From: a virus
Lineage: Duplodnaviria; Heunggongvirae; Uroviricota; Caudoviricetes
IMG/VR virus record: IMGVR_UViG_2636415906_000003
Location: 1-32,747 of that record
Strand: one strand, 5' to 3'
Length of the DNA stretch: 32,747 nucleotides
The position numbers were made by a program, and so were the translations under genes. The number at the start of each line of letters is the position of its first letter. Position 1 is the first letter of the stretch. Below the pieces are notes generated by a model that searched no databases, was not told the origin of the DNA, and worked only from the letters and a program-made list of their open reading frames with translations. Shown piece after piece: positions 1,312-31,739 of the stretch.

Positions 1312-1326
1312 TGGTGTCCCCTGCAG
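1312..1326. repeat. Prophage att core copy (attL-type): 15-bp exact direct repeat of the 3' end of tRNA-Arg argW
   Basis: tggtgtcccctgcag at 1312..1326 is identical to 31665..31679, the 3' terminal 15 nt of the tRNA on the minus strand. Flanking bases differ on both sides, so the repeat is exactly 15 bp. Confidence 0.75.
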
Positions 1327-1399: not shown

Positions 1400-1600
1400 T
1401 TACCCATTGGCGCGGCTTAAGAGCTTATTTTTGAATTCACAATGGTCACGATATAACCATCTTGCTCGCCCGTGGATAACTTTGGCTTTAGGCAGGTCGC
1501 CGGACTTAATCCGGTCATAGATGAAGGTCTTACCGAAGCCAGTATCAGCCATGATGAATTTCAAATCAACCAGTGAATCAGGCTGTAGTTCGTGTTGCAT
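1400..1600 (-). CDS. torI: Prophage excisionase / recombination directionality factor, TorI/AlpA-like
   Basis: 66-aa ORF at the prophage end opposite the integrase. The translation (MQHELQPDSLVDLKFIMADTGFGKTFIYDRIKSGDLPKAKVIHGRARWLYRDHCEFKNKLLSRANG) matches my memory of E. coli TorI, the KplE1 excisionase. Confidence 0.7.
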   Translation of the reverse strand: MQHELQPDSLVDLKFIMADTGFGKTFIYDRIKSGDLPKAKVIHGRARWLYRDHCEFKNKLLSRANG

Positions 1601-8109: not shown

Positions 8110-8156
8110 CTGCCAATCTGTTCCGTTTGGCTTCCAGCGTCCTGCTGATGGCTTAA

Positions 8157-8240: not shown

Positions 8241-8252
8241 TTTAAAGGAAAT

Positions 8253-8275: not shown

Positions 8276-8926
8276 TTATGGAAGGTTTGCTAGTTTTGCA
8301 TCGACAACTACGCCGATGATTTTGCAGTTTCCGTTGATCTCGATCATCGGATATTGTGGGTTAAGTGGTTTTAGAAACTTCCTGCCTGCATCAATAACTA
8401 ACTTCTTGAAAGTTGCCTCGTTTTCTCCTTCGAGCTTTGCAACTACCAGTTTCCCGTTACGCGGCTCTACTTCAGGATCGACGAGTATTATCATTCCTTC
8501 AGGGATACTGAGACCGGCCGGAGCCGTCATTGAGTCTCCCTTCACGTCCAACCAAAACGAATCTTCTGAACAGTCTACGGTTGTATCGTACCAGTTATCT
8601 ATTGCACGCTTATGATATGGTTCTACAGCTTCCATCCAGCATCCTGCGCTCACCCAGCTAATCAGAGGGTATGACCCTCTTGGATCATGCCTACTGTGAT
8701 AGGCAATGTTTGAAAGACTTTCCTCTCCTTTCATCAGATAGTCAGGGGAACACTTCAACGCATTAGCCAGGGCGAGAAGATTCTCTCCATTTGGCTCTGT
8801 CTCAGAGCGTTCCCACTGAGATATGGCAACATTAGACACGCCGACCATCTTTCCAAGTGCGGCCTGCCTGATCTTGAGTTCTTTTCTCCGAGCGCGAATG
8901 CGCTCTCCCATCAATTGAGTTTTCAT
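8276..8926 (-). CDS. cI: Prophage repressor, P22 C2-type (HTH plus S24 LexA-like autopeptidase domain)
   Basis: 216-aa ORF that is near-identical to my memory of P22 c2 (MKTQLMGERIRARRKELKIRQAALGKMVGVSNVAISQWERSETEPNGENLLAL...); divergent from cro. Confidence 0.9.
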   Translation of the reverse strand: MKTQLMGERIRARRKELKIRQAALGKMVGVSNVAISQWERSETEPNGENLLALANALKCSPDYLMKGEESLSNIAYHSRHDPRGSYPLISWVSAGCWMEAVEPYHKRAIDNWYDTTVDCSEDSFWLDVKGDSMTAPAGLSIPEGMIILVDPEVEPRNGKLVVAKLEGENEATFKKLVIDAGRKFLKPLNPQYPMIEINGNCKIIGVVVDAKLANLP

Positions 8927-8992: not shown

Positions 8993-9006
8993 TTCGGAGC
9001 GAGTCT

Positions 9007-9192
9007 ATGTACAAGAAAGATGTTATCGACCACTTCGGAACCCAGCGTGCTGTAGCTAAAGCGTTAGGCATTAGCGACGCAGCAGTCTCTCAGTGGAAGG
9101 AAGTCATCCCAGAGAAAGACGCCTATCGACTGGAAGTCGTTACAGCTGGCGCCCTGAAGTATCAAGAAAGCGCTTACCGCAAAGCGGCATAA
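9007..9192 (+). CDS. cro: Cro repressor
   Basis: 61-aa ORF with GGAG SD; sequence matches my memory of P22 Cro (MYKKDVIDHFGTQRAVAKALGISDAAVSQWKEVIPEKDAYRLE...). Confidence 0.85.
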   Translation: MYKKDVIDHFGTQRAVAKALGISDAAVSQWKEVIPEKDAYRLEVVTAGALKYQESAYRKAA

Positions 9193-9199
9193 GCAAATT

Positions 9200-9243: not shown

Positions 9244-9300
9244 TACAACGCGCATAAGTTGATGCGCATAACTTCTTATTTGTTAAGGAAATACTTACAT

Positions 9301-9579
9301 ATGGAACTTACAAGTACTCGCAAGAAAGCGAATGCAATTACAAGCAACATCCTGAATCGAATTGCTGTACGTGGTCAGCGAAAGGTTGCCGACGCGTTAG
9401 GGATTAATGAATCGCAAATTTCGCGATGGAAAGACAGCTTCATCCCAAAAATGGGAATGCTTCTGGCTGTTCTTGAATGGGGTGTTGAAGACGAGGAGTT
9501 GGCGGAACTGGCTAAGAAAGTAGCCAGAATGCTGACAAAAGAAAAAGCCCCGAAGAACGGCGAATTCTTCGAGGCCTGA
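9301..9579 (+). CDS. cII: CII-like transcriptional activator (P22 C1 equivalent)
   Basis: Aligns with lambda CII ([25 protein letters not shown] conserved). Start taken at ATG 9301, because the longer ORF from 9214 would run across nutR. Confidence 0.8.
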
Positions 9580-9613
9580 TGTAGAAAGACTGGATCAATC
9601 CACAGGAGTCATT

Positions 9614-9760
9614 ATGACAAAACAACTCAGTCCTTACCAGGACAAAATTCACAAACACATACTACGTGATCGCTTCCTGTCCAGCTTCAAGCAGCCTGGT
9701 CGATTCCGGGCTGAGTTGGAAAAAGTGAAGCTGATGCAGAAGGAGAAAGGTCATGAGTAA
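9614..9760 (+). CDS. Small hypothetical protein (48 aa) between cII and the replication genes
   Basis: ORF with an AGGAG-like SD, its stop overlapping the O-like gene start; positionally like the small ORF between c1 and gene 18 in P22. Confidence 0.4.
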
Positions 9761-12078: not shown

Positions 12079-12166
12079 TGACCATCTACATCACTGAGCT
12101 AATAACAGGCCTGCTGGTAATCGCAGGCCTTTTTATTTGGGGGAGAGTAATTGGAGGCTTTGAGAA

Positions 12167-12394
12167 ATGAGTACGATAGCTGAACTTGTCAGGGCTAATT
12201 TTCGTGAAGAGTTGGTGCGTTGGTATCGGTATCGTTCATCGTCCAGTTTGCCGCTTGATGAGTTGTATGAGCATTCACCTGCCGCACGACGCTATCCGCG
12301 TGACCGCGTTCTTCGCCGGTTGGTTAAAATCGATAATGATTTTCAGTGTGACAAAATTATCCAGCAATTAGATTTGATGGCTGATGATGAATGA
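12167..12394 (+). CDS. Hypothetical nin-region protein (75 aa)
   Basis: ORF with a GGAGG SD. A 29-codon hydrophobic micro-ORF (12078..12167) lies just upstream and is not listed separately. Confidence 0.45.
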   Translation: MSTIAELVRANFREELVRWYRYRSSSSLPLDELYEHSPAARRYPRDRVLRRLVKIDNDFQCDKIIQQLDLMADDE

Positions 12395-12809
12395 TTTCAT
12401 TCTGCACGAAACCAATAAATCACAATTCTGGTTAGTTCTGAAACAAATCCTCTCTACCGGCAAACGCTGGCGAATCAAAATATCTGAGTACCGTGAGAAG
12501 CGTACATTGTCACAAAACAATCTGCTGTGGATGTGGAATGCAGAAATAGCCGCACAGTTATCTGCTGCTTCTGCTGAAAACTTCACGCCTGAAGAGGTTC
12601 ATGAGTGGCTGAAAGATATATTTTGTCCGGCTAAAAGGGTGACGATTTTTAATATTACACGATGCGTTAAATCAACACGTCAGCTTGATATTGGAGATAT
12701 GCACAAATATCTGACCGATATTGACCAGTGGGCGCATCAGAAGGGATTACGACTAACCATTCCTGATAATTGCGAGTACCGGGATCTAAAGGAGAGGCAA
12801 GTAGAGTGA
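12384..12809 (+). CDS. ninB: NinB-like recombination protein
   Basis: 141-aa ORF with the conserved S-Q-N-x-x-x-W segment (TLSQNNLLWMW) as in lambda NinB; sits after the replication genes. Confidence 0.65.
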   Translation: MMNDFILHETNKSQFWLVLKQILSTGKRWRIKISEYREKRTLSQNNLLWMWNAEIAAQLSAASAENFTPEEVHEWLKDIFCPAKRVTIFNITRCVKSTRQLDIGDMHKYLTDIDQWAHQKGLRLTIPDNCEYRDLKERQVE

Positions 12810-13333
12810 CTATCAAATCAAATACGCCAGCACACGACAAGGACTGCTGGCAAACGCCGCTTTGGCTTTTTGATGCACTGGATATTGAGTTTGGATTCTG
12901 GCTGGATTCGGCAGCGAGCGACAAAAATGCTCTGTGTGCTCACTGGCTAACTGAGGCCGACGACGCGCTCAATTCTGAGTGGGTAAGCCACGGTGCAATC
13001 TGGAATAACCCACCGTACAGCAATATCAGGCCGTGGGTGGAAAAAGCCGCTGAGCAGTGCATACAACAGCGACAGACGGTAGTTATGCTTGTGCCAGAGG
13101 ATATGTCAGTCGGATGGTTCAGCAAGGCTCTGGAGAGTGTCGACGAAGTTCGCATTATCACTGATGGACGGATTAATTTTATCGAACCATCGACAGGGCT
13201 GGAGAAGAAGGGAAACAGCAAAGGCTCCATGCTGCTGATTTGGCGACCGTTCATCAGTCCTCGACGGATGTTTACTACCGTATCCAAAGCGGCATTGATG
13301 GCGATCGGGCAGGGCGTCAGGAGGGCAGAATGA
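12806..13333 (+). CDS. Phage DNA N6-adenine methyltransferase (Dam-like)
   Basis: Catalytic NPPY motif (WNNPPYSN). The ORF has no ATG; start taken at GTG 12806, 8 nt after a GGAGAGG SD (the ORF track starts at TTG 12770). Confidence 0.75.
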
Positions 13334-13512
13334 GACGACAGCGACGAAGTTTCACCGACATCATCTGCGAAAACTGCAAATACCTTCCAACGAAACGCTC
13401 CAGAAATAAACGCAAGCCAATCCCAAAAGAATCTGACGTAAAAACCTTCAATTACACGGCTCACCTGTGGGATATCCGGTGGCTTAGAGAACGTGCGAGG
13501 AAAACAAGGTGA
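13330..13512 (+). CDS. ninE: NinE-like protein
   Basis: 60-aa ORF ([34 protein letters not shown]...) matching my memory of lambda NinE; its start overlaps the methylase stop. Confidence 0.7.
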
Positions 13513-13679
13513 TTGACCCAAATCGAAGTTACGAACAAGAAAGCGTCGAGCGAGCTTTAACGTGCGCTAACTGCGGTCAGAAGCTGCATGTGCTGGAAGT
13601 TCACGTGTGTGAGCACTGCTGCGCAGAACTGATGAGCGATCCGAATAGCTCAATGTACGAGGAAGAAGACGATGAGTGA
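13509..13679 (+). CDS. ninF: NinF-like protein
   Basis: 56-aa Cys-rich ORF (...[25 protein letters not shown]...) matching my memory of lambda NinF; GTG start overlapping the ninE stop. Confidence 0.65.
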
Positions 13680-13776
13680 GTTAATAAATGGCAATGCCAT
13701 CAAAATGACAAGCATTGAAATCGCTGAGTTGGTGGGAAGTCGTCATCCCGGTTTATGGAAAACGCTGGTTCATTGA
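13672..13776 (+). pseudogene. 5' stub of a gene (34 codons) ending at the deletion junction
   Basis: [25 protein letters not shown]... looks like the start of a phage DNA-binding or regulatory protein, then hits a stop where the frame changes into portal-homologous sequence. Confidence 0.35.
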
Positions 13777-14947
13777 TGACATTGAGCGTGTCGAAGGGCA
13801 CATTGCAAAAGCAATGGATCCACAGCGTTTGTACAACCTTCAGGTTTCAATGCTGGCTGATACTGCAGCACAAGACCCCGGTCAGATCCCTATAGTTGGC
13901 ATGGAGCAAATTCGTGGACTTGAGAAGCACTGGGAGGCTCGCAACAAGAAACGCCCAGCGTTCTTGCCGTTGCGCGAAGTGAGAGATAAATCTGGCAACA
14001 TTATCGCTGGAGCTACCCCGGCAGGATATACACAGCCTGCGGTTATGAATCAGGCATTGGCTGCATTACTACAGCAAACCAGTGCTGATATTCAGGAGGT
14101 TACAGGCGGCAGTCAGGCCATGCAGCAGATGCCAAGTAATATTGCTCAGGAAACGGTTAACAACTTGATGAACAGAGCAGATATGGCTTCGTTTATCTAT
14201 CTGGACAATATGGCGAAAAGTCTTAAACGCGCTGGTGAAGTATGGCTGTCAATGGCGCGTGAAGTGTACGGTTCAGAACGTGAAGTGCGCATCGTTAACG
14301 AAGATGGAAGTGATGATATCGCTGTCCTGAGCGCACAGGTTGTTGACAGGCAAACAGGGGCTGTTGTTGCGTTAAATGACCTTTCTGTCGGTCGATACGA
14401 TGTGACGGTTGATGTTGGACCAAGCTACACAGCACGACGTGATGCAACGGTTTCTGTACTGACAAATGTCCTTAGCTCTATGCTTCCAACAGACCCAATG
14501 CGCCCGGCAATTCAGGGTATTATTCTGGACAATATCGATGGCGAAGGCCTTGATGACTTCAAAGAGTACAACCGAAACCAACTGCTGATATCTGGTATTG
14601 CAAAACCACGCAATGAGAAAGAGCAGCAGATTGTTCAACAGGCGCAAATGGCAGCACAAAGCCAGCCAAATCCTGAAATGGTTCTCGCTCAGGCGCAAAT
14701 GGTAGCAGCGCAGGCAGAAGCGCAAAAAGCAACTAACGAAACTGCTCAAACTCAAATCAAAGCATTTACTGCCCAGCAGGATGCGATGGAGAGTCAGGCA
14801 AACACTGTCTATAAACTGGCTCAAGCCAGAAACATCGATGACAAAGCAGTGATGGAGGCAATACGCCTTCTGAAAGATGTCGCCGAGTCACAACAACAGC
14901 AATTCCAGTCACCACCACAGTCACCGGCAGACTTAATGCCGAGTTAA
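13715..14947 (+). pseudogene. Portal protein (P22 gp1-like), C-terminal ~400 codons only; N-terminal part deleted
   Basis: From about 13742 (VIPVYGKRWF...) the translation aligns with the middle and C-terminal regions of the P22-type portal, which is more than 700 aa. The reading frame is open only from 13715 and no intact portal N-terminus or terminase gene is upstream. Confidence 0.7.
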
Positions 14948-14960
14948 CCAGGAGTAATCA

Positions 14961-15845
14961 ATGGAAAACGAACTGATCATCGACGGTCAGGTTATTGACC
15001 TGTCTGAAACACAGGAAAATGCAGAAGAAACCATCATCCAAACAGAGTCACAGCCTGAGAATGAAAGCCAGGATGACAACGGTAAAGAGGTGGAAACTGA
15101 GCCTGAAAAAACCGAAGAGACACCAGAAGATTACGCCTTGCGTATTGGTGATGAAGAAATTCAGCTTAACGCTGACGATGATGATCACATTGACGGGCAA
15201 CCTGCACCGCAATGGGTGAAAGATCTTCGCAAAGGCTTCAAAGAAACACAGAAAGAAAACCGTGAGTTGCGCCGCCAGCTTGAGGAAGCATTAGCCAAGC
15301 CAGCGGAACATCAGCAACCACAACCAGACGCTATTCCACCAAAACCGACTCTTGAGTCGTGTGATTATGACGAACAGGCGTTTGAACAGGCATTGACTGA
15401 TTGGCATGAGAAAAAAGGCCGTGTCGAACAGCAGCAGCAACAAAAACTACGTCAGCAACAGGAATACCAACAGCGTTTCCAGCAAAGGGTAGAAGCGCAT
15501 AAACAACGGGCAGCCAAACTTCCTGTGAAAGATTATCAGGAAATGGAAGCCATTGTTCTTAGTGAGCTACCACCAATTCAGCAGGAAATCATCATTCACT
15601 GTGCAGACGAAGGCTCTGAACTACTCGCCTATGGCTTAGGTAAGAGCCAGCAATTACGCCAGCGTGTAGCCGCTGAGACAGATCCAATTCGCGCAGCATT
15701 CCTCTTGGGGCAGATTAGCAAACAGGTAAGCCTTGCTCCAAAACCAAAGAAAGCCATCAAGCCAGAGCCGGAAGTACGTGGTGGCGGTGCTGATGCGAAA
15801 CAAGACGAATTCAACAAATTATGCCCCGGCGCAAAAATCGAATAA
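14961..15845 (+). CDS. Scaffolding protein (P22 gp8-like)
   Basis: 294-aa acidic, Gln-rich, helical ORF between portal and coat; LPVKDYQEMEAIVLSELPP aligns with P22 gp8 LNIPDYQEKEDAFMQLVPP. Confidence 0.75.
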   Translation: MENELIIDGQVIDLSETQENAEETIIQTESQPENESQDDNGKEVETEPEKTEETPEDYALRIGDEEIQLNADDDDHIDGQPAPQWVKDLRKGFKETQKENRELRRQLEEALAKPAEHQQPQPDAIPPKPTLESCDYDEQAFEQALTDWHEKKGRVEQQQQQKLRQQQEYQQRFQQRVEAHKQRAAKLPVKDYQEMEAIVLSELPPIQQEIIIHCADEGSELLAYGLGKSQQLRQRVAAETDPIRAAFLLGQISKQVSLAPKPKKAIKPEPEVRGGGADAKQDEFNKLCPGAKIE

Positions 15846-15856
15846 GGAAAAGATAA

Positions 15857-17128: not shown

Positions 17129-17132
17129 TAAC

Positions 17133-17159
17133 AAGGGGCTTACGCCCCTTTTATGTTTT
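17133..17159 (+). terminator. Rho-independent terminator after the coat gene
   Basis: Hairpin aaggggc-ttac-gcccctt (17133..17150) followed by a T-rich run. Confidence 0.6.
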
Positions 17160-17170
17160 AAGGAAACAAT

Positions 17171-17356
17171 ATGGATCGGATGAGTGTATTCCTTGCCGCA
17201 GATAACGAATCCGGGCATGTACAGGCCGTTATCGCAGAAAAAGACTTCCAGTTTTTCGAAAGGTTGGGCTTTGTTGCCTCAGTTGATGAATTGAAACCGA
17301 CCAGTAAGCGAGGTCGCAAGGCGGCGGACAATGGCAACAGTACTGACAAAGGGTGA
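17171..17356 (+). CDS. Small hypothetical protein between coat and gp4 (61 aa)
   Basis: ORF with an AAGGAAA SD directly after the coat terminator. Confidence 0.45.
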   Translation: MDRMSVFLAADNESGHVQAVIAEKDFQFFERLGFVASVDELKPTSKRGRKAADNGNSTDKG

Positions 17357-17813
17357 GATCGTCCTTTTTGCGCTTCGTAAGTTTGCTATTGCTTCTAATG
17401 CATCGCTTACTGATGTTGAGCCGCAATCAATTGAAGATGGTGTAAATGATCTGGAAGATATGATGTCCGAGTGGATGATTAACCCCGGCGACATTGGTTA
17501 CGCTTTCGCAACTGGAGATGAGCAGCCATTACCAGATGATGAGTCAGGTCTTCCAAGAAAATACAAACACGCAGTAGGCTATCAGTTATTGCTGAGAATG
17601 CTATCTGATTACAGCCTTGAACCAACTCCGCAAGTTCTCAGTAACGCCCAACGCTCATATGATGCCTTGATGACCGACACTCTGGTTGTTCCTTCAATGC
17701 GACGACGTGGAGATTTTCCTGTAGGGCAGGGTAATAAATATGACGTGTTCACATCTGACCGATATTATCCAGGCGATCTCCCTCTGATTGATGGCGATAT
17801 CCCAAACGCATAG
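17331..17813 (+). CDS. Head completion / tail adaptor protein (P22 gp4-like)
   Basis: 160-aa ORF; [23 protein letters not shown] aligns with P22 gp4 [23 protein letters not shown]. Confidence 0.7.
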   Translation: [160 protein letters not shown]

Positions 17814-17821
17814 GTGAATAA

Positions 17822-19240
17822 ATGCCTATTCAGCAACTTCCGCTTATGAAAGGTGTCGGCAAAGACTTCCGAAACGCCGACTATATCGACTATCTGCCAG
17901 TGAATATGTTGGCTACACCCAAAGAAATCCTGAACAGCAGCGGATATCTTCGCTCATTCCCGGGCATTGCCAAACGTTCTGATGTGAACGGTGTATCGCG
18001 CGGAGTCGAGTACAACATGGCGCAGAATGCTGTTTATCGTGTCTGTGGTGGCAAGCTCTACAAAGGCGAAAGCGAAGTCGGTGACGTCGCCGGAAGTGGT
18101 CGCGTATCAATGGCACATGGTCGGACATCTCAGGCTGTAGGCGTTAATGGTCAACTGGTCGAGTATCGCTATGATGGCACGGTTAAAACCGTCTCAAACT
18201 GGCCTGCAGACAGCGGATTTACGCAGTATGAGTTAGGTTCAGTCCGCGACATTACACGCTTACGTGGGCGTTATGCGTGGTCAAAAGACGGCACGGATTC
18301 ATGGTTTATCACTGACCTTGAAGACGAATCGCATCCTGACCGTTACAGCGCACAATATCGTGCCGAGTCGCAGCCGGACGGCATCATCGGCATCGGAACA
18401 TGGCGAGACTTCATCGTCTGCTTTGGTTCATCGACGATTGAATATTTTTCCCTGACAGGTGCAACCACCGTTGGTGCCGCGTTGTATGTCGCACAGCCAT
18501 CACTGATGGTGCAGAAAGGAATTGCCGGGACTTACTGTAAAACGCCGTTTGCTGATTCGTATGCGTTTATCAGCAATCCGGCAACAGGTGCGCCGTCTGT
18601 ATACATCATCGGCTCCGGTCAGGTGTCACCAATTGCCAGTGCGAGCATTGAGAAAATCCTCCGCTCCTACACTGCTGATGAACTGGCTAATGGTGTGATG
18701 GAATCGCTGAGATTTGATGCTCATGAGTTGCTGATTATCCACCTTCCGCGCCATGTTCTCGTGTACGACGCATCTTCAAGCGCCAATGGTCCGCAATGGT
18801 GCGTACTGAAAACAGGACTGTATGACGATGTATACCGCGCTATCGACTTCATTTACGAAGGCAATCAGATAACGTGCGGCGATAAGCTGGAATCGGTGAC
18901 CGGGAAATTGCAGTTCGATATCAGCAGTCAGTATGGGCTTCAACAGGAACACCTGCTGTTTACTCCACTGTTCAAAGCGGATAACGCCAGATGCTTCGAT
19001 CTGGAGGTGGAATCATCCACTGGCGTAGCTCAGTATGCCGACCGCCTGTTCCTCTCTGCAACCACTGACGGCATCAATTACGGGCGTGAGCAGATGATTG
19101 AGCAGAATGAACCGTTCGTTTACGACAAACGCGTTTTGTGGAAGCGTGTCGGGCGAATAAGGAAAAATGTCGGCTTCAAATTGCGCGTTATCACTAAGTC
19201 ACCTGTCACCCTGTCTGGCTGCTCTATTAGGCTGGAGTAA
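17822..19240 (+). CDS. Tail accessory protein (P22 gp10-like)
   Basis: 472-aa ORF matching my memory of P22 gp10 along its full length (MPIQQLPLMKGVGKDFRNADYIDYLPVNMLATPKEILNSSGYLRSFPGI...). Confidence 0.85.
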   Translation: MPIQQLPLMKGVGKDFRNADYIDYLPVNMLATPKEILNSSGYLRSFPGIAKRSDVNGVSRGVEYNMAQNAVYRVCGGKLYKGESEVGDVAGSGRVSMAHGRTSQAVGVNGQLVEYRYDGTVKTVSNWPADSGFTQYELGSVRDITRLRGRYAWSKDGTDSWFITDLEDESHPDRYSAQYRAESQPDGIIGIGTWRDFIVCFGSSTIEYFSLTGATTVGAALYVAQPSLMVQKGIAGTYCKTPFADSYAFISNPATGAPSVYIIGSGQVSPIASASIEKILRSYTADELANGVMESLRFDAHELLIIHLPRHVLVYDASSSANGPQWCVLKTGLYDDVYRAIDFIYEGNQITCGDKLESVTGKLQFDISSQYGLQQEHLLFTPLFKADNARCFDLEVESSTGVAQYADRLFLSATTDGINYGREQMIEQNEPFVYDKRVLWKRVGRIRKNVGFKLRVITKSPVTLSGCSIRLE

Positions 19241-19242
19241 TA

Positions 19243-19737
19243 ATGATTTCACATGAAGAGTTGAAGCGTCATTTATCATATGACCCAGAAACCGGGGTTT
19301 TTACCCGAAAAATATCAAATACAGCGAGCGTCACCGTTGGTGATGAAGCGGGAACCATGTGCACTGGTTATTTAAGGATAATGGTCTGTGGTAAGAGATA
19401 CTTAGCGCATAGGCTTGCTTGGTTTTATATGACAGGAAAACCTGCAAATTGCTTAATAGATCATATTAACGGAGACAGAACGGATAACAGATTTTCAAAT
19501 TTAAGATTGGCAAATAGATCCCAGAATGGGATGAACAGGAATATTCAAAGAAATAATAAGTCAGGATATCCGGGTGTCTGTTGGCACAAAAATCTCTGCA
19601 AGTGGACTGTTTCTTTCAAGAAAAATAAAAAACAGGTTCACGTTGGATGCTTCGATGACCTGGACGAAGCTATCTCAGCATCAATGATGGCAAGAGCAGA
19701 AAATTTTGGAGAGTTTGCAAGGCAGAGGATCGAGTAA
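19243..19737 (+). CDS. HNH homing-type endonuclease with AP2-like DNA-binding domain
   Basis: HNH motif ([25 protein letters not shown]) plus an AP2-like segment ([31 protein letters not shown]); the gene is visibly more AT-rich than its neighbours. Confidence 0.8.
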
Positions 19738-20438
19738 TGGTTGATTCATCACTGAATGATCCTGTCGTGGTTCAGGCTACGCGCCTTGATGCTTCAATTT
19801 TGCCACGCAATATATTCAGCCAGTCTTACCTGCTGTATGTCATAAATCAGGGTGCTGATGTCGGTGCGATTGCTGGGAAGGCAAATCAGGCTGGTCAGGG
19901 CGCTTATGATGCTCAAGTGAAAAACGATGAACAGGACGTCGAACTGGCAGATCACGATGCAAGAATCACCGCAAACACAAAAGCGATAAATCTCCTTGAG
20001 GTCAGGTTAACAACTGCCGAAGGGAAGATAGTCGTACTGCGTAGCGATGTTGATTACTTGCTGGATGAGGTTATCGATATTCAGGCGCATCTGGTCACTG
20101 TTGACCAAAGACTGGATGGCGTAGAAAGCGATGTATCTGACATTAAGAGTGATTACGTATCGAAAACCGTAACCGAATCGCAGTCTCTTGCGTCACCGCT
20201 GGATGTAAAAACATCATATTCAGTTGATGGAATTCAGGTTGTTGGAGCAAGAAATACCGGATGGACTGCAGCCACAGGTACACCTCTTCTTGGCTCATTC
20301 AACGCTAACCAGTCATACACGGTCGGCACTACGTACACACAATCCGAAGTCGCGGCTCTCGCTACAGGTTTGCAGCAGGCGCGGCAGCGTATTCTGGCGC
20401 TTGAAACAGCACTTAGATTACATGGGCTGATTGACTGA
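19737..20438 (+). CDS. Tail needle protein (P22 gp26-like)
   Basis: 233-aa ORF matching P22 gp26 at the N-terminus ([17 protein letters not shown]) and C-terminus ([20 protein letters not shown]...LRLHGLID). Confidence 0.85.
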
Positions 20439-20893
20439 TGATTACATTCAAACCAACGCGAAACATCGACTTGATCGAAGCAGTCGGAAATCACCCTGAC
20501 ATTATTGCCGGGAGCAACAACGGTGATGGATACGACTACAAGCCTGAATGCCGTTACTTCGAGGTGAACGTGCACGGGCAGTTTGGCGGCATTGTTTACT
20601 ATCAGGAGATTCAGCCGCTTACATTCGATTGCCACGCCATGTACCTGCCAGAGGTTCGTGGATTCAGCAAGGAAATCGGTCTGGCGTTCTGGCGATACAT
20701 TCTGACTAACACCACTGTTCAGTGCGTCACATCGTTCGCTGCACGCAAATTCCGCCATGGTCAGATGTACTGCGCAATGATTGGCCTTAAGCGTGTAGGA
20801 ACCATCAAGAAATACTTCAAAGGCGTGGATGACGTGACGTTTTACAGCGCCACACGCGAAGAACTAATCGACTTCCTGAATCACGGGAGATAG
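20438..20893 (+). CDS. Virion assembly protein at the gp14 position (P22 gp14-like)
   Basis: 151-aa ORF between the gp26 and gp7 homologues, its start overlapping the gp26 stop; assigned by position. Confidence 0.55.
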   Translation: MITFKPTRNIDLIEAVGNHPDIIAGSNNGDGYDYKPECRYFEVNVHGQFGGIVYYQEIQPLTFDCHAMYLPEVRGFSKEIGLAFWRYILTNTTVQCVTSFAARKFRHGQMYCAMIGLKRVGTIKKYFKGVDDVTFYSATREELIDFLNHGR

Positions 20894-20895
20894 CC

Positions 20896-21591
20896 ATGTT
20901 ATATGCATTTAAGCTGGGCAGAAAACTGCGCGGCGAGGAACCTTATTGCCCTGAAAAAGGCGGGAAAGGTGGCAGTTCTGATAAAAGTGCAAAGTATGCC
21001 GCAGAAGCTCAGAAGTATGCCGCAGACCTGCAAAATCAGCAGTTCAACACCATCATGAACAACCTGAAGCCGTTTACTCCTCTGGCTGGGAAGTATGTCG
21101 GCAGCCTTGAGAACTTATCGTCTCTGGAAGGGCAAGGTCAGGCACTTAACCAGTATTACAACTCTCAGCAGTACAAAGATCTTGCTGGTCAGGCTCGCTA
21201 TCAGAGTCTGGCGGCAGCGGAAGCAACAGGTGGATTAGGTTCCACCGCAACCAGTAATCAGTTAGCAACAATCGCACCAACGCTTGGTCAGCAATGGCTA
21301 TCTGGTCAGATGAACAACTACCAGAATCTGGCAAATATTGGTCTTGGCGCACTGCAAGGTCAGGCAAACGCCGGGCAGACATATGCCAACAACATGAGTC
21401 AGATTTCGCAGCAAAGTGCGGCTCTTGCAGCGGCAAATGCCAACAGACCATCAGCAATGCAATCTGCTATTGGCGGGGGTGCGTCTGGTGCTATTGCTGG
21501 GGCTGGACTTGCGAAATTAATTGGTTCATCAACTCCGTGGGGTGCTGGTATCGGTGCTGGTATCGGTCTGCTTAGTTCACTGCTTTATTAA
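20896..21591 (+). CDS. Ejection (DNA transfer) protein (P22 gp7-like)
   Basis: 231-aa Gln/Ala/Gly-rich ORF with a hydrophobic Gly-rich C-terminus, in the gp7 position. Confidence 0.75.
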   Translation: MLYAFKLGRKLRGEEPYCPEKGGKGGSSDKSAKYAAEAQKYAADLQNQQFNTIMNNLKPFTPLAGKYVGSLENLSSLEGQGQALNQYYNSQQYKDLAGQARYQSLAAAEATGGLGSTATSNQLATIAPTLGQQWLSGQMNNYQNLANIGLGALQGQANAGQTYANNMSQISQQSAALAAANANRPSAMQSAIGGGASGAIAGAGLAKLIGSSTPWGAGIGAGIGLLSSLLY

Positions 21592-21601
21592 GGGGTAATC
21601 A

Positions 21602-23017
21602 ATGGCTACGTGGCAACAGGGTATTAATTCTGGTGGTTTTCTGGCTGGCATCGGTACGCAAAATGAGAATGCGCCAAAGGCAAGCGACATTAACGCAACG
21701 CTTGGTCTGATCCGCGAAAACAATGAACTGGCTCGCTCAGGTGCAAATAACGTTGGTCTGACCGCGTTACGTGGTCTGGCTGGAGTTGCTGATATTTACA
21801 ATCAGGAACAGCAACAGAAAGCGATTAGTGCGTTCAATAAGGTTCATGCTGATGCATGGGCTTCTGGTGATCCATCTGGACTATTTAAGTTTGCCCAGGA
21901 AAATCCAGCGTTTGTTGCACAGGCACAACAGGCGTTTTCCGGTCTTAATGAGCAGCAACGCAACGATATGGGCGATTTAGCCATGAGGGCTAACGTCGCT
22001 CTTTCTCAGGGACCGGAAGCCTACAGTAAATTCATTACTGACAACAAGGACAGGTTAAATCGCGTGGGGGCGAATGCTGACTGGATGATTCAGACAGGTA
22101 TCCAGAATCCAGAGCAGCTATCACACATGCTGACTACTATGTCTCTCGGTGCGCTTGGACCAGAAAAGGCGTTTGCTGTTCAGGATAAGATGGCTGGTCG
22201 TGAAATTGACCGAGGCAGGCTGGCAGAGACAATCCGCAGCAATCAGGCTGGTGAAGCACTTCAGGCGAGAGGGCAAAACCTTTCCTATCAGTCAGCAATG
22301 ACTGGGCACAATATCGCAGCACAACGCTTGGCTCTGGATCAGCAAGAGTTCGGGTTTAAGATGCAGCAAGCGCAGGAAAAGGCTCAGCAGTTGATTAGTG
22401 AAGCACCTAAGCTGTCAGTAAACATGGAAAAAGGCATCGAGACGGCTGTAAACAATGCCACAGCATCATCAAACTCAGCCAATTCTATGAGTGCGCTTGC
22501 TCAACAGTTCAGAGCAGAAAAACCAACGACAGGTTTGTTCGGTAACGCACAGAACATGTTCGCAAAACTTACCGGAAGCGATACAACATTGCGTGATTTG
22601 CGCATTCGCCAAAATGCCCTTGTTAACAGTCAGGTTCTTAAATTCCTACCTCCCGGCCCAGCAACGGATAAAGACGTTGAGATCGTTCGACAGGGTGCGC
22701 CAACTGACATGGATAACCCTGAGACGGTCGCAAGATGGCTTGATGCAATGGCAAACCTTGAGCGACGAAACGCGCAGTTTAATGAGTTTAAAGCCGAGTG
22801 GATGAGCGCGAATGGCAACCCTGGACAATCGCGTAATGGCGGTCAGATATTGGGGTTGGATGTTAAAAAAGGTGAATCATTGGGGAGTGCCGTTAAGCGG
22901 TATATGTCAATGAATACTGACGCAGCGCCAGCACAAGATTCGACACCTTCAGGAGAACCACGGAATCAGGTTGGATCATATACCTCAAAATCAGGCATTC
23001 AATTTACGGTGGAATGA
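21602..23017 (+). CDS. Ejection protein (P22 gp20-like)
   Basis: 471-aa ORF in the gp20 position, the same length as P22 gp20. Confidence 0.8.
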
Positions 23018-24846
23018 TGAAAGTAACTGCAAACGGTAAGACATTTACCTTTCCTGATGGTACGAGCACCGAAGATATTGGCACCGCCATTGATGAGTAT
23101 TTTGCTGGTCAGGCTGTTCAGCAACAAACAGTTAATCAGGCCAATAATGCACCAACACGGGAAGAACCATCATTGATGCAACAAGCTGGCGATTGGCTCA
23201 CTGGTGGTCAAAGTGCAGGGCAAATTGCAGAACAGGCTGGCCGTGGTCTGGTAAACATACCATTTGACGTATTGCAGGGTGGTGCAAGTCTGATTAATGC
23301 AATCAGTCAGGGGCTTGGTGGGCCAAAAGTATTGGATGATGTTTATCGTCCAGTAGACAGACCGACAGACCCCTACGCGCAAGCCGGTGAAACAATTGGT
23401 GGGTATTTAGTTCCAGGAGTTGGAACGGCAGGAAGCATGGCTATTGGATCACTGGCAGAGGCCGCAAATCAGAAAGGCGATTTCGCACAAAATGCAACTA
23501 AAAATGCCGGAGTTAACCTTGCCGCTCAGGGGGTTCTTTCCGCAGCAGCAAAGGGAATAGGGCGTGGAATTACTGCTGTTCGTGGCGAAATATCACCAGC
23601 AGATCAGCAATTGCTCAAGCGTGCCGCTGCGGCAGATGTACCAGTTATGACATCGGATGTAGTTCCTCCAAAAACAAAACTTGGCAATCAACTGCAGGGT
23701 TACTCAGAAGGAGTCATAGCTGGGACTGGACCAATGAGAGCCGCACAGCAGGATGCTAGAACCAAGCTTGTTAATCGCTTCACCGAAAAATACGGCGACT
23801 ACGATCCATCTGTAGTCGTTGATAGTCTAAAGTCAGGCGTTGCAAGGGAAAAATCGTTAGCCAAGTCAAAACTAAACAACCTGTCAGGAAGAATGGTTGG
23901 AAAGCCAGTTGATACAAGTGGCGCCATAAGAGCTATCGACGGAGCAGTAAACGAACTTGGGAAACTTAAAGGTGTTTCTGACACCCAGACCATTTCTGCG
24001 CTTAATGATTATAAGAATGCCATTCAGGAGATAACAAATGGAGATGATGCCTTTGAGTTACTTGATAAGCTGAGAACTCAGTTCCGCATTGACGTAAAAG
24101 GCGATCGTACAGTTCTGCCATCAATGTCGCAAACAATGGTCGACAGGGTCTACAACTCGCTAACCAATAGCCTTAGTAAATCTATAGCGAAAGGACTTAG
24201 CCCAAAAGATGCTTCAGCATGGAGAGCGGGAAAAGCTGATTATGCAAAAATGGCAACACATGCAACTCAAACGCGCCTTAAAAACGTTCTAAACAAAGGA
24301 GATTTAACTCCCGAGGCTGTAAATACCATTGTGTATGGACAATATGGGTCAGATATAGCTCGATTGTACGGGAAACTCGATCAAAAAGGTAAAGACATGC
24401 TAAGGGCGGCATATATCAGCAAAATAGCTGACAAGGTAGGTGACAGCCCTCAGAAAATGATGACCGAGCTTGGCAAGCTGCAAAAACAAGCAAATGGTCA
24501 GGTGTTTAAAACTGTATTTGGTGGGAAGAACGGAAAAGAGATAGAGGGGATGTTATCTATTCTCGATGCTACCAAAAGAGCATCTGAGGCTAATGTTGTG
24601 ACGAAGACTGGCATGACACTCGCGCCTTTGGTAAGGGTTATTGGTAACCTAAAAACCGGAGGCGCGCTATTGGCTGGGGAAACAGGGATTGGCCTTATGT
24701 CGAGGGTTTATGAAAGCCCTATGGCTAGGAATGCGCTCTTACGTCTGGCAAACACTAAAGCTGGAACGCCAGCTTATGAAAGAGCGCTGAATAACGCCGC
24801 AAATGCCATCAGACCAATACTTGCCAATGATGCAACTGATCGCTAA
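23014..24846 (+). CDS. Ejection protein (P22 gp16-like)
   Basis: 610-aa ORF in the gp16 position, its start overlapping the gp20 stop. Confidence 0.8.
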
Positions 24847-28247: not shown

Positions 28248-30254
28248 ATGACAGATTCAATAAATGCCAATGTTGTAGTGAGTATGCCTTCGCAACTCTT
28301 CACTATGGCTCGTTCTTTTAAAGCTGTAGCCAATGGCAAAATTTATATCGGTAAAATTGACACTGACCCGGTAAATCCTGAAAACCAGATTCAGGTTTAT
28401 GTAGAGAATGAAGACGGCTCTCACGTTCCTGTTTCGCAACCAATCATCATTAACGCTGCCGGATATCCGGTATATAACGGGCAGATTGCCAAGTTCGTAA
28501 CTGTGCAAGGCCATTCTATGGCTGTTTATGATGCATACGGTGCGCAGCAGTTCTATTTTCCGAATGTGCTGAAGTATGATCCTGATCAGTTATCTATAAA
28601 ACTATCAAGTAATATTGGATACAAATACATTGGAATGGTAGAGAGCGCTAACTCCCTTAAAGATATACAAGGAATGTCGATATCTGATAAATTATATTTA
28701 AAATCATACGTATCCGGACTCGAACTTGGTGGTGGGTTTGTTGTAGCTGTAGACAAGTCAATTGCAGTTGATAACGTAATGGTTTTAGAAGGTAACGGTG
28801 TAAATTGGAAGAGAATAAACCCAAGCCTTGAGTTTTCTGTATATGACGCTGGTTACAGCGGCGCTGGGGATATTGCATTATTTATTAATAAAATAAACTC
28901 TCTAGGTTATGATTGCGTTGTTCCATGTAGTGGAGAATTCTCGTCTTTAATTGATATTGATTTCGCGAAGGGTGGGTTAAGAGGATCGAATAAATGCGTT
29001 TTAACTGAGATTAATGGGATATCAGGTGATTATGCAATTAGGTTAAGCAACTCTAATATTTCTTATGAAAATAGGGATGAAATAAATGCAACATCAATTT
29101 TAGATGGCATATCTTTTAAGATGCTAGGATCTAAAAAGATTTTACTTGGAGGTATTGGCACTGGTGAATTATCAGAGTTAAGAATAAGTAATTCTTCATT
29201 CATATCATCTGCTGGAATTGAGTTTCTTGATAATTCATATAGAATTTTATTTGACAAAGTAACAATATCAAGATGTCTAAACAACACAATTATATTTAAT
29301 TCTCCATCAAACTCAGGCGAGGTAATGACATTTAATAATTGTTGGGTTGTTGATAATGGAGGTCCATTGACAATTAGAAATGGTCAATTTATTTTTAACT
29401 GTTGCTCTATGCCATCAGGTAAGAAAGAAGGTTATTTTGATTCTACTGTTTTTATTGAAGATAACGCAACCGTTGTTTACTCAAGTGGAAATATTGAGTT
29501 TCAGCCAGGTCAAAGCTTTGTGGCGTTCTCTGCATCTGGAAGCACAAGAATAAGCATTAAAGATACAACGCTACTTACTCCCTCTGGATATAGTTCAGTT
29601 CCGTTTGTTGTAAATGATGATTCAGTACTTTCATTAACAAATTGCTCATTGCCTTTATTTGACCAAATGGATTTGGCGACAGGATCAGCAACTAGACAGG
29701 TAGTTGGAGGTAATAGTAAAAAAATAATGTCATATGGATGCTATCCACGATCTGGATTTATAACAACTCAGTGGGATAAAGGGAACATAGTTAGTCCATA
29801 CATAAATTCGCTATCAAATGGAAGTGGACAGTTTTTAAACTACTCTAACTGGAGCCTTCAACAAACTGGTTCAGGTGTTGTTACAGCAGGAACGGATTCT
29901 GATGTTCCAAATGATATTATGTTTTCCAGGTCTTTGTATGTAGCAATACCATCTATAGGAGCATCTGCAAAATTTTATCAGGAGTGCTCAGACTGCTCAC
30001 CAGGACGATATTTCCAGTTAGGTTTTTGGGCTAAGAATCAAGTGACAACAATCTCTGGTATTGAGTTTTTTGATAAAGAAGGGAACTCTGTTCAGGGAAA
30101 AGCAACATTTACAATTCCACTAGGCTCCACATGGAATTTCTACGCATTAATAGATATTGTTCCTCCTGGAGCAAGCAAAGTTAGGATTGATTTTGATGTT
30201 TCCGGTGAAGCAGGCTCTCTTCATTTGCATAATGTTATTTATGGGCTGATTTGA
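28248..30254 (+). CDS. Tailspike protein: P22 gp9-like N-terminal head-binding domain fused to a divergent beta-helix receptor-binding domain
   Basis: First ~115 aa closely match P22 gp9 ([48 protein letters not shown]...), with no recognisable P22 similarity beyond about residue 120. The remainder is AT-rich and Asn/Ser/Gly-rich. Start at ATG 28248 after a GGAG SD. Confidence 0.85.
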
Positions 30255-30345: not shown

Positions 30346-31503
30346 TCACTCCACCTTTTCATCAATCCAATCCGCCCACCATTGCATCATTTCTCTGCGC
30401 TTTTCTAGATACTGAGCATGGTTGTAAATCCCACGCACAGATCCGCCGTTGGCATGTGCCAGTTGCACTTCAATAGCGTCAGCAGGCCATTCGTGCTCGT
30501 TCATAATTGTGCTGAATTCATGCCTGAATCCGTGACCGCTTTCCAGACCCTCATAGCCGATTTGTTTGATCACAAGCAGCACCGCGTTCTCGCAGATCGG
30601 CTTCTTCTTATCGTTGCGCCCGGCAAAAACAAACTCTGATACTGGTTTGGTGATTGAGCTTAGCGTAGTGAGAAGTTCAACCACCTGGTCTGACATCGGG
30701 ACCACATGAATCTTGCGGCCCTTCATCACACTGGCGTCGATAGTGATAATCCTGTTTTCAAAATCGACGTTCTTCCATTGCATGGAGCGAAGTTCTTTTG
30801 TTCTGAGGGCTGTGTAGCGTAAAACTTTGGTTGCAATGAGCGATACGATACTTCCTGAAAATGTTGCCAGTGCTTTGTTGAATGCCGGGATCTGGTCTGC
30901 AGGAAGAAACGGGAAGTTCTTCTTGCGGTATCCCTTCATGGCGTCAGCAAGGTCAGGTGCTGGGTTATATTTAGCCCTGCCGGTGACAATAGCGTAACGG
31001 AAAACCTCGCCGCATCTTCTACGTGCTTTGTTGGCTCGCTCCATTGCACCGCGATCTTCAAATCTGCGGATTACTTCCAGCAGTTGTATCGGCTCAATAT
31101 CCTGAATTTCAAGGCCGCCGATGATAGGTAAAATGTCGTCATCAAACATTTTTGCAAGTTCAGTTGCATATCCTACTGACCAGACTTGCTTCTTGTGCTC
31201 GTACCATTCCTTGTAAATGGCACTAAAGGAATTGTTGTTAGACGAAGCCTTTTTCGCTTTTACCGGATCGATGCCAACCGAGATGTCTTTCCTCGCAGTC
31301 CATGCTTTATCCCTTGCCTCCTGCAAAGTCATTAGCGGATATTTTCCTACGGTCAGGATTTTCTCCTTACCGTCAATCTTGTAGCGAAGCTGCCATACCT
31401 TTTTCCCTGACACAGGGACATAAAGGTACAGGCCATTACCATCGAGTAGGCGGTATGGTTTTTCTTTCGGCTTGGCTGCTTCAATCTGCTTAACGGTGAG
31501 CAT
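30346..31503 (-). CDS. intS: Tyrosine integrase, IntS/P4-family
   Basis: Adjacent to tRNA argW; the 385-aa product from ATG 31503 (MLTVKQIEAAKPKEKPYRLLDGNGLY...) matches my memory of E. coli IntS. An in-frame ATG at 31539 would add 12 codons. Confidence 0.85.
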   Translation of the reverse strand: MLTVKQIEAAKPKEKPYRLLDGNGLYLYVPVSGKKVWQLRYKIDGKEKILTVGKYPLMTLQEARDKAWTARKDISVGIDPVKAKKASSNNNSFSAIYKEWYEHKKQVWSVGYATELAKMFDDDILPIIGGLEIQDIEPIQLLEVIRRFEDRGAMERANKARRRCGEVFRYAIVTGRAKYNPAPDLADAMKGYRKKNFPFLPADQIPAFNKALATFSGSIVSLIATKVLRYTALRTKELRSMQWKNVDFENRIITIDASVMKGRKIHVVPMSDQVVELLTTLSSITKPVSEFVFAGRNDKKKPICENAVLLVIKQIGYEGLESGHGFRHEFSTIMNEHEWPADAIEVQLAHANGGSVRGIYNHAQYLEKRREMMQWWADWIDEKVE

Positions 31504-31664: not shown

Positions 31665-31739
31665 TGGTGTCCCCTGCAGGAATCGAACCTGCAATTAGCC
31701 CTTAGGAGGGGCTCGTTATATCCATTTAACTAAGAGGAC
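31665..31739 (-). tRNA. argW: tRNA-Arg (anticodon CCU)
   Basis: Read from the minus strand: acceptor stem, D-arm, anticodon loop CUCCUAA (anticodon CCU), T-arm GGTTCGATTCC and a 3' CCA; 75 nt. Confidence 0.9.

Follow-up and report, generated by a model that had tools for sequence, protein, structure and literature searches.

The window, by which we mean the whole stretch of 32,747 nucleotides analysed here, contains a single prophage that runs from att site to att site (1312–31679) and is whole except for one internal deletion. Its left end is marked by the attL core TGGTGTCCCCTGCAG at 1312..1326, a 15-nt exact repeat of 31665–31679. The right-hand copy, the attR core, is the 3′ end of argW, a tRNA-Arg(CCT) gene placed by ARAGORN on the minus strand at 31665..31739. 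The core matches that of HK620 attP, and it also matches the core sequence of KplE1 (PMC2951348). Just inside the left end lies a torI-type excisionase (RDF) gene (1400..1600, minus strand), whose product is 100% identical to HK620 HkaC/TorI over 66 of 66 residues; the identical sequence in the prophage of strain XB2 bears the torI annotation. At the opposite end an intact IntS-type integrase gene (30346..31503, minus strand) encodes a protein 98.2% identical to HK620 Int over 385 of 385 residues.

IntS and TorI at opposite prophage ends, with a 15/16-nt core overlapping the 3′ end of the tRNA-Arg(CCT) gene, form a layout that agrees with the HK620 record and with KplE1 (PMC2951348). In HK620 and KplE1, attP lies between int and torI. 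The position of the integrase gene next to the tailspike gene was considered as a sign of a circular or non-prophage gene order, or of a second element, and was rejected as such, this being the normal HK620/KplE1 arrangement. A 410-residue open reading frame in the middle of the window, discussed below, corresponds exactly to AKP85149.1 from the 4,936,576-bp chromosome of E. coli ACN001, a strain that also carries six plasmids. Judged by its sequence, the element is an HK620/Sf6-type prophage (P22-like, Lederbergvirus) integrated in argW of the published avian pathogenic E. coli (APEC) strain ACN001.

The early genes are well preserved. The immunity genes cI, cro and cII are kept, together with the replication genes O and P and the integration set of IntS, TorI and both att cores. 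The cI-type repressor is an apparently intact 216-residue frame on the minus strand (8276..8926), and the identical gene in a Logan assembly carries the Pfam HTH_3 and Peptidase_S24 domains expected of a helix-turn-helix repressor with an S24 peptidase; the Logan gene identical to cro (9007..9192, plus strand) matches P22_Cro. The remaining early features are all on the plus strand. The product of gene O (9753–10652) is 98.0% identical to HK620 O over 299 of 299 residues, and that of gene P (10642–12078), a DnaB-like helicase, is 99.8% identical over 478 of 478. A consensus scan finds a tR2-like intrinsic terminator before the nin region at 12107..12130, with an 8-bp stem containing six G–C pairs and a T run, at the map position of tR2 in HK620. 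The last intact early genes are ninE (13330–13512) and ninF (13509–13679), both full-length and 98.3% and 98.2% identical to HK620 NinE and NinF, respectively.

Rightward of these genes the virion genes from scaffold through tailspike are all present, on the plus strand and in the order typical of P22-type morphogenesis: portal, scaffold, coat, gp4, gp10, gp26, gp14, gp7, gp20, gp16 and tailspike, with only the portal truncated. The scaffold (14961–15845) and coat (15857–17128) genes are intact and full-length, at 99.3% and 99.1% identity to HK620 gp8 and gp5. The head-completion, needle and ejection genes occupy 17171..24846, as seen from tblastn with HK620 proteins and from the XB2 annotation; this segment holds hkbT, gp4, gp10, an extra HNH gene, gp26, gp14, gp7, gp20 and gp16. 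Full-length matches to HK620 were obtained for hkbT, gp4, gp10, gp26, gp14 and gp7, and partial matches, at 48–89% identity, for gp20, gp16 and the tailspike. The tailspike gene (28248..30254) combines a conserved head-binding N-terminus, matching HK620 residues 1–132 at 88.6%, with a different receptor-binding part, and is annotated in XB2 as a “phage head-binding domain-containing protein.” The initial annotation had proposed that immunity, replication, integration and most virion genes survive, and the tblastn matches, the domains of the Logan genes and the att repeats agree with it.

Between these two well-preserved arms lies the junction. The initial annotation described an anonymous 34-codon stub after ninF. 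The frame is real (13672..13776, plus strand) and was also predicted by an independent gene caller, but it is not anonymous: it consists of the first 25 codons of roi (13672–13746) followed by nine out-of-frame portal codons and a TGA stop. Positions 13690–13746 match, at 100%, roi (KilAC antirepressor) alleles found in many E. coli genomes, and alignments to the roi genes of HK140, M172-1 and EC1515 agree on this identity. Since this frame begins as roi, the deletion starts inside that gene and not directly 3′ of ninF. Three mismatches to the roi of HK140 and M172-1 immediately before the joint (GGGAAGTCG versus GGGTAAGCG) were considered as junction mutagenesis or filler, and this was rejected because many genomes carry exactly the same roi allele.

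The joint itself is placed at 13743..13746 by a three-way alignment with the intact EC1515 prophage, and falls within a 4-bp microhomology, TCAT, that is common to both parents. The left parent reads ...AAGTCGTCAT|GACAAGG and the right parent ...CCCCCTCAT|CCCGGTT; comparison with XB2 and HK620 gives the same breakpoint. The earlier placement at 13735..13745 overlaps this site and is narrowed by the EC1515 alignment. No insertion sequence, inverted repeat end, filler DNA or extra base is found at the joint, where the parental sequences abut with the TCAT overlap, and the interval 13700–13800 is wholly explained by roi plus portal. The fusion is out of frame, passing from roi codon 25 to portal codon 308. 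The left flank (12807–13746) is 96–98% identical to dam-ninE-ninF-roi of HK140, HK97 and others. The right flank shares 99.6% identity with Sf6 and 99.2% with HK620 from mid-portal to coat (13743–15900), and 99.4% with EC1515 across portal, scaffold and coat, again starting at 13743.

What remains of the portal gene is a 3′ fragment on the plus strand (13742..14947) that, by comparison with the HK620 portal, comprises codons 308–708 and the stop and lacks a start of its own. The mechanical 410-codon frame extends from 13715 to 14947, and its first nine codons derive from roi, read in a frame other than that of the gene. The initial annotation held that its translation matches only the C-terminal ~400 residues of a portal, and every comparison bears this out: HK620 residues 308–708 are matched at 99.3% (tblastn), the Pfam P22_portal profile (PF16510) only at positions 276–594 of 594 (E 3.5e-91), and, among solved portal structures, that of Sf6 (7SFS) over residues 309–708 of 708 and that of P22 (3LJ5) over residues 300–682 of 725. 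A whole portal spans about 708–725 residues; no alignment of the frame to a functional portal was full-length, the C-terminal part alone being covered. An intact portal gene would have its own start and ribosome-binding site immediately 3′ of terL, and here the upstream DNA is roi. No in-frame start of the fragment has a well-placed Shine–Dalgarno sequence, the first in-frame ATG, at 13814, having only AAGG about 15 nt upstream and the other starts no such motif at all, and no sigma-70-like promoter was found on the plus strand at 12000–16200, nor any between nin and coat. A 410-residue “portal, partial” protein of the same cluster, P0012, was examined as a possible second case of the junction and rejected as a contig-end truncation, because it begins with ordinary portal sequence (RRIPGEHIPLIPVYG...).

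Since the near-identical prophage of XB2 carries a portal gene of 708 codons, the short frame is a truncation and not a family variant. A naturally short, functional portal or a different gene order, with a prophage that is not defective, is hardly conceivable: the 410-codon frame is open and GenBank names AKP85149.1 “portal protein,” but the gap in portal coverage, the roi-derived first codons, the lack of a usable start and the 708-codon gene of the 100%-identical XB2 prophage all stand against it, as does the fact that terminase, Q and lysis genes occur at no position in the window.

The extent of the loss can be judged from intact relatives. In E. coli EC1515, which has the same roi allele, the two flanks lie 7,361 bp apart and TCAT occurs at both breakpoints; the corresponding missing interval in HK620 is 9,025 bp (13416–22440). 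The EC1515 interval reads roi′-DUF1364-rusA-ninH-Q-holin-endolysin-Rz-terS-terL-′portal. The lost block also holds Rz1, the late promoter PR′/qut and the 5′ 922 nt of the portal gene, that is, its first 307 codons. In P22-type phages the pac site lies within the small terminase gene, and it should also be gone, because that gene is lost.

Searches of the window with tblastn, using HK620 and M172-1 proteins, gave no match to the remainder of Roi or to HkbD/DUF1364, RusA, NinH or Q, and none anywhere in the window to S, R, Rz, TerS or TerL. Its unassigned frames are at most 271 residues long and contain no terminase or lysis domain. The block of Q, PR′/qut, holin, endolysin, Rz, TerS and TerL that lies between nin and portal in the HK620/Sf6 type is therefore missing, and its absence marks the element as a deleted member of that type, not as a non-member. 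The domain search, the tblastn results and the EC1515 alignment together uphold three proposals of the initial annotation: that ninH, Q, the lysis genes and terminase are absent between ninF and scaffold, that no unassigned frame elsewhere in the window is a terminase, and that a deletion, here a single collinear one relative to HK620 and EC1515, joins the nin region to the middle of the portal gene.

No intact ancestor at ~100% identity is present among 5,426 complete RefSeq E. coli genomes. In that search the segment from immunity to nin reaches 98.6–99.0% at best, with mosaic coverage, and the XB2 segment from terL′ to the 5′ part of portal reaches 99.1% outside XB2. We infer the deleted content from relatives and from fragments in XB2 and NC22 because no identical intact ancestor is found in the complete-genome set.

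Both flanks are collinear with a single intact relative, EC1515, and nothing foreign lies at the joint, as expected of an internal deletion. It is very likely that one such deletion, made by illegitimate recombination in an HK620/Sf6-type argW prophage, produced the present structure and left it incapable of yielding progeny. Illegitimate recombination across TCAT would join roi codon 25 to portal codon 308.

A false join of two phage-related contigs during assembly, with an intact prophage in the true chromosome, deserves consideration. The ACN001 genome was determined from pyrosequencing (454) reads and finished by PCR, with 217 gap-closing PCRs (PMC4730748). A 1-bp difference from XB2 in an A run at 25434 resembles a 454 homopolymer error, and the junction recurs in none of 5,426 complete E. 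coli genomes from RefSeq. It is likewise absent from one-genome-per-species GTDB contigs and from JGI metagenome contigs, being present only in the ACN001 record and in the Logan contig(s). However, the Logan assembly of SRR35492383 contains a 14,299-bp contig that is identical to window positions 7333–21631, junction included. This contig is reported for two samples; the SRA run could be ACN001 re-sequenced or another isolate. An artefact is very unlikely because this separate assembly holds exactly the same junction. The joint is, moreover, seamless, with 4-bp microhomology, and XB2 and NC22 are also deleted here, so that an undeleted copy is not the norm for this lineage.

A chromosomal rearrangement between two prophages, joining an HK97/HK140-like lambdoid left arm to an Sf6-like podophage right arm, is highly improbable. 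It would explain why, among phages, the nin region is most similar to siphoviral lambdoids (HK140, HK97 and Stx phages) and the right arm to Sf6 and HK620. However, HK620 itself has the ninE-ninF-roi order at 98% protein identity, and in the intact P22-like prophages EC1515 and M172-1 this nin region precedes the same terminase-portal module. The ends of the element are a matched HK620-type pair, TorI/attL and IntS/attR, in argW, and in XB2 and NC22, too, both arms are present and are flanked by cscB on one side and argW-yfdC on the other.

Deletions of prophage DNA mediated by insertion sequences are common, and ACN001 has 39 insertion sequences (PMC4730748). Even so, there is scarcely any likelihood that an insertion sequence or transposon made this adjacent deletion, since the joint has only the TCAT overlap, with no insertion sequence, inverted repeat end or extra base, and the entire window aligns to phage or host sequence.

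The prophages of XB2 (NZ_CP162303.1) and NC22 (NZ_CP109953.1) occupy the same site and have arms 100% identical to those of the window element, with 0–1 substitutions over 15.9–19 kb; XB2 is identical across 19,005 bp save for a 1-bp indel. The two share pseudogenes with the window prophage. Each appears to have suffered different, independent deletions of the same prophage that also remove Q and terminase, a new observation that follows from their alignment. In XB2, window position 7930 (upstream of N) is fused to the 3′ third of terL; its portal gene is complete, but cI, cro, O, P, nin, Q, the lysis genes and terS are gone. NC22 has one joint between position 7445, inside N, and the middle of the endolysin gene, and a second between the first Rz codons, just past endolysin, and the end of the coat gene (window 16854). 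With HK620 as proxy parent, these breakpoints show about 2, 7 and 2 bp of microhomology. XB2 retains the 3′ end of terL and NC22 a fragment of endolysin, both missing from the window element; because such pieces survive and the arms are 100% shared, the common ancestor was intact. The lineage thus seems to be decaying repeatedly, since two sister strains show other independent deletions over the same module, as expected for prophages selected against lytic functions.

A more specific reading is improbable. Rather than neutral decay, the three independent and very recent losses of the Q-to-terminase region in one lineage of 100%-identical prophages could point to strong selection acting again and again in avian E. 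coli, for instance in favour of cells that escape a readily induced prophage. The ACN001 joint would place scaffold, coat and tail genes directly 3′ of the N-antiterminated PR operon, and SOS-induced portal-less capsids, free tailspikes or the portal fragment might benefit the host, for example by hindering assembly of superinfecting HK620/Sf6-like phages.

For the single internal deletion, the functional consequences follow from the gene content. The prophage should still be able to repress, and it can probably excise and replicate. Activation of the late genes by Q, cell lysis, formation of a portal-containing procapsid and DNA packaging should all be impossible, and no progeny would be expected. 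After derepression, the sole plausible transcription of the structural genes would be N-antiterminated read-through from PR; a terminator lies beyond coat at 17133–17150. A gene transfer agent or tailocin would combine a structural cluster with means of expression, packaging and release; terminase, an intact portal, Q/PR′ and lysis genes are all missing from the window. ACN001 is reported to have eight prophage-related regions (PMC4730748), and a compatible set of terminase, portal and lysis genes elsewhere in the genome might in principle complement the defect in trans.

The practical consequences are modest and current understanding is unchanged. The argW prophage of ACN001 should be annotated as defective, AKP85149.1 as a portal pseudogene fragment, and the 34-codon frame as a roi remnant. 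Prediction tools that score the many intact virion genes would overcall the region as an active phage. Three sisters with identical arms and four microhomology junctions provide a clean natural example of rapid, repeated loss of a lytic module, and the absence of late-control and packaging genes from all three strains may serve to test models of prophage decay on a small scale.

Among known systems the closest are the HK620/Sf6 argW prophages. Shared with these are the IntS/TorI module and the 16-nt att core in argW, the early-left, immunity, O/P and ninE-ninF-roi order, and the order of scaffold, coat, gp4, gp10, gp26, gp14, gp7, gp20, gp16 and tailspike. Most of the proteins concerned show 93–100% identity, with gp20, gp16 and the tailspike only partly matched to HK620. 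In contrast to HK620, the window lacks everything from roi codon 26 to portal codon 307, including Q, the lysis genes, hkbK-N, terS and terL. Its cI is of a different immunity type (42% identity), its recombination module is of the Rad52 type where HK620 has Sak4, and it has the extra HNH gene, located between gp10 and gp26, and another tailspike receptor domain.

KplE1 (CPS-53), a defective prophage in argW of E. coli K-12, has the same IntS/TorI module and core and excises though dead (PMC2951348). Whereas KplE1 has shrunk to a 10.2-kb remnant that lacks a repressor and structural genes, the window element measures 30.4 kb, has lost only one block, and retains cI, O and P along with almost every virion gene. 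The trend reported for incomplete prophages is a preferential loss of genes for lysis, packaging and release, with integrase and tail genes persisting (PMC7744054). The window element fits this general trend and shows nothing qualitatively different from it. Loss of the late-gene activator, lysis genes, terminase and the 5′ part of the portal gene by a prophage is an ordinary, already known kind of event, of which the ACN001 element is a very young example: it has undergone a single deletion, and its arms remain identical to those of its sister copies.

By megablast against 50,697 phage records, window 12700-15900 splits cleanly into two match blocks. The left block (12807-13746) is the lambdoid dam-ninE-ninF-roi segment, 98.4% identical to HK140 and 96.4% to HK97 and shared with many Stx phages; the right block (13743-15900) runs from mid-portal through scaffold into coat, with 99.6% identity to Sf6 and 99.2% to HK620. 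Neither those records nor 5,426 complete RefSeq E. coli genomes contain both halves in one piece. The joint was placed by three-way alignment with EC1515, an intact relative that carries the same roi allele and a portal-scaffold-coat block 99.4% identical. With a slash marking the break, the left parent reads ...GGGAAGTCGTCAT/GACAAGG and the right parent ...ATCCCCCTCAT/CCCGGTTT; the window reads ...GGGAAGTCG, TCAT, CCCGGTTT. The joint is thus the 4-bp microhomology TCAT at 13743-13746 (5 of 6 bases if CNTCAT is counted), and the alignment shows no filler DNA or IS end there. The initial annotation had proposed a deletion fusing the nin region to mid-portal within 13735..13745. The fusion is confirmed and its position, nearly right, is refined to TCAT; the interpretation as a deletion is supported, with a size of 7.4-9.0 kb depending on the comparator (7,361 bp by EC1515; 9,025 bp by HK620, whose endpoints are 13416-22440). 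By our own estimate, a 4-bp overlap would arise at a random joint with a probability of about 1-2%. RecA-independent, microhomology-mediated illegitimate recombination would fit the TCAT overlap.

A false join in the assembly is unlikely, since the same junction occurs in an independent Logan assembly. A 14,299-bp contig from SRA run SRR35492383, reported for 2 samples, encodes the 34-residue product of the ORF that crosses the joint and is 100% identical to window 7333-21631, junction included; the run is either ACN001 itself or another isolate. ACN001 is a phylogroup B1 avian pathogenic strain from chicken liver (China, 2010). Its genome was determined by 454 sequencing, with 217 PCRs to close gaps, and of prophages the paper says only that there are "8 prophage-related sequences" (PMC4730748). 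The event is of an ordinary and already known kind, in a genome that is published; this particular deletion seems to be undescribed but is not surprising.

In the ORF list and the raw sequence, ninF (13509-13679) is overlapped at its end by a 34-codon ORF (13672-13776), and a mechanical ORF of 410 codons (13715-14947) precedes scaffold (14961-15845) and coat (15857-17128). The short ORF had been described simply as a stub after ninF; it exists as such, but its sequence identifies it as the 5′ end of roi. In HK140, HK620, M172-1 and EC1515, roi encodes a 240-aa KilAC/Bro-type antirepressor directly after ninF and starts 8 nt ahead of the ninF stop, and the stub start is identically placed. The stub comprises 25 roi codons, then 9 out-of-frame codons from portal DNA and a TGA. 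Three bases immediately left of the joint differ from the roi of HK140 and M172-1. Many E. coli genomes, however, carry a roi 100% identical to window 13690-13746 (71-nt query), so the window has an ordinary roi allele, and roi homology extends to exactly 13746.

What remains of the portal gene is, as had been claimed, only the part for the C-terminal ~400 residues. HK620 portal residues 308-708 map to 13742-14944 with 99.3% identity (tblastn), the Pfam P22_portal profile is matched only at positions 276-594 of 594, and the structures of the Sf6 portal (7SFS, 708 residues) and the P22 portal (3LJ5, 725 residues) are matched at 309-708 and 300-682. The exact 410-aa product is deposited as AKP85149.1, "portal protein [Escherichia coli ACN001]", on a 4,936,576-bp contig. 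Its reading as a short portal is rejected because coverage of profile and structures is partial, with no full-length alignment to a known portal; because codons 1-9 are roi DNA in another frame; and because no properly spaced Shine-Dalgarno motif precedes any in-frame ATG, GTG or TTG in the first 450 nt of the portal ORF. The ORF is a 5′-truncated pseudogene. The protein cluster of AKP85149.1 also includes many NCBI drafts with a "portal protein, partial" of 388-602 aa at the ends of ~149 kb contigs, the longer contigs having the longer proteins. Since the two sizes vary together, assemblies of one clone break at differing points in the portal gene; these are contig-end artefacts rather than deletions like that of ACN001.

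According to the EC1515 annotation, the lost interval comprised the remainder of roi; DUF1364, rusA, ninH and Q; a pair of tRNA genes; lysis genes for a holin, a GH24 endolysin and Rz-type proteins; three small ORFs; and terS, terL and 922 nt from the 5′ end of portal. PR′, qut and tQ also fall there in the HK620 annotation. When 53 HK620 and 11 M172-1 late-region proteins were searched by tblastn, HkbD/DUF1364, RusA, NinH, Q, S, R, Rz, HkbK-N, TerS and TerL had no match anywhere in the window, which bears out the reported absence of NinH, Q, lysis and terminase genes between ninF and scaffold. Nor do the unassigned ORFs of 141-271 aa contain a terminase or lysis domain (Pfam); the initial annotation had likewise seen none large enough to be a terminase.

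The contribution beyond that annotation is a trio of independently deleted sister prophages. The same prophage occupies the same site in E. coli strains XB2 (from a chicken, Henan) and NC22 (from a duck, Nanchang). The left arm of XB2 equals window 1-7930 without differences, and its right arm equals 13743-32747 except for one 1-bp A-run indel; in NC22 the arms are 1-7445, again without differences, and 16854-32747, with the same indel and one substitution. In XB2, window 7930 (a position upstream of N) is fused to terL, of which the final 558 nt remain, and the portal gene is full (2,127 nt); this region is 9182-9242 and 9210-11896 of the XB2 locus. In NC22, a first joint leads from window 7445, inside N, to mid-endolysin, and a second from the first Rz codons, just past endolysin, into coat at window 16854, leaving its final 276 nt; an endolysin fragment of ~165-200 nt, with the Rz start, is stranded between them (19484-19760 of the NC22 locus). 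If HK620 is taken in place of the lost parents, microhomology at these three joints is ~2, 7 and 2 bp.

Q and terminase are removed in all three strains. Each keeps something that the other two lack: ACN001 the segment from cI through the roi remnant, XB2 the terL remnant and portal 5′ end, and NC22 the endolysin remnant. The deletions are therefore independent, from a more complete common ancestor, and none is derivable from another. The comparison proves that ACN001 had a full-length portal in the past and shows a prophage lineage decaying repeatedly, in agreement with a report that incomplete prophages preferentially lose genes for replication, packaging and release (PMC7744054). XB2 has lost cI and cro yet apparently keeps kil and a ral remnant on the N side of the early-left operon. 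In identical sequence of XB2 and NC22 (window 1-870, ~2160-2441, ~7190-7290 and ~25650-25810), RefSeq marks as pseudogenes host cscB and a phage-borne DNA polymerase III theta homologue (internal stops), ral (frameshift), DUF550 (fragment) and arc (truncated); being common to the strains, this minor decay is older than the big deletions. The sole difference from XB2 in 19 kb is the A-run at window 25434 (4 versus 3 in XB2 and NC22), near the 5′ end of a hypothetical gene (24868-25437, minus strand; a mechanical ORF of 189 aa versus 212 aa in XB2, WP_021575669.1). Either a genuine frameshift or a homopolymer error of the 454-based ACN001 assembly may account for it.

With cI, the operator region and cro all present, repression should work. 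SOS cleavage of cI should fire PL and PR, excision should follow through N, TorI and the autonomous intS promoter, and replication should be possible with O and P. A consensus scan of the plus strand from 12000 to 16200 gave no sigma-70-like site; a tR2-like terminator lies at 12107-12130 and a strong terminator after coat at 17133-17150. With Q, PR′ and qut gone, N-antiterminated read-through past the tR2-like terminator would be the only route into the truncated portal, scaffold and coat, and the last two, even if expressed, would form portal-less shells at best. The pac site of P22-type phages lies in terS. Because terminase, pac site and holin/endolysin/Rz are missing, neither packaging nor phage-mediated lysis should be possible, and induction may still hurt the cell through replication and Kil.

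The element is a single prophage, complete between its two att sites. The 15-nt core TGGTGTCCCCTGCAG is repeated exactly at 1312-1326 and 31665-31679, the right copy forming the 3′ end of tRNA-Arg(CCT), argW. Rearrangement between two prophages is excluded by the host flanks (cscB left, argW-yfdC right), which are the same in XB2 and NC22. The integrase gene (30346-31503, minus strand) adjoins tailspike at the right end; circular-phage gene order was rejected as the reason, since the HK620/KplE1 layout, with attP between int and torI and these genes at opposite prophage ends (HK620 record; PMC2951348), explains the placement. Immunity, replication, integration and most virion genes are retained, as initially proposed: full-length matches show IntS, TorI, Abc2, cII, O, P, NinE and NinF, and scaffold, coat, gp4, gp10, gp26, gp14 and gp7, to be intact, and cI (HTH and S24), cro, N, gp20, gp16 and tailspike are open ORFs with expected domains or partial matches. 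Between gp16 and tailspike, an immI-like region (24868-27843) with arc-family genes contains a Bro-N/P22AR-C antirepressor gene (26096-26806), so that roi, now truncated, is not the only antirepressor gene of the prophage. Two further ORFs of the region (26807-27622 and 27622-27843) are of unknown function.

Unlike HK620, this prophage has an extra gene between gp10 and gp26 (19243-19737) for a 164-aa HNH endonuclease (Pfam HNH_3 and a weak AP2 match), which resembles an insertion of the homing-endonuclease type into the head-completion operon. The tailspike (28248-30254) resembles HK620 gp9 only in the head-binding domain (residues 1-132, 88.6%); the receptor-binding part differs, and a different O-antigen specificity is implied. 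The prophage is 30.4 kb long, and with the lost 7.4-9.0 kb restored its size of 37.7-39.4 kb resembles those of HK620 (38.3 kb) and Sf6 (39.0 kb).
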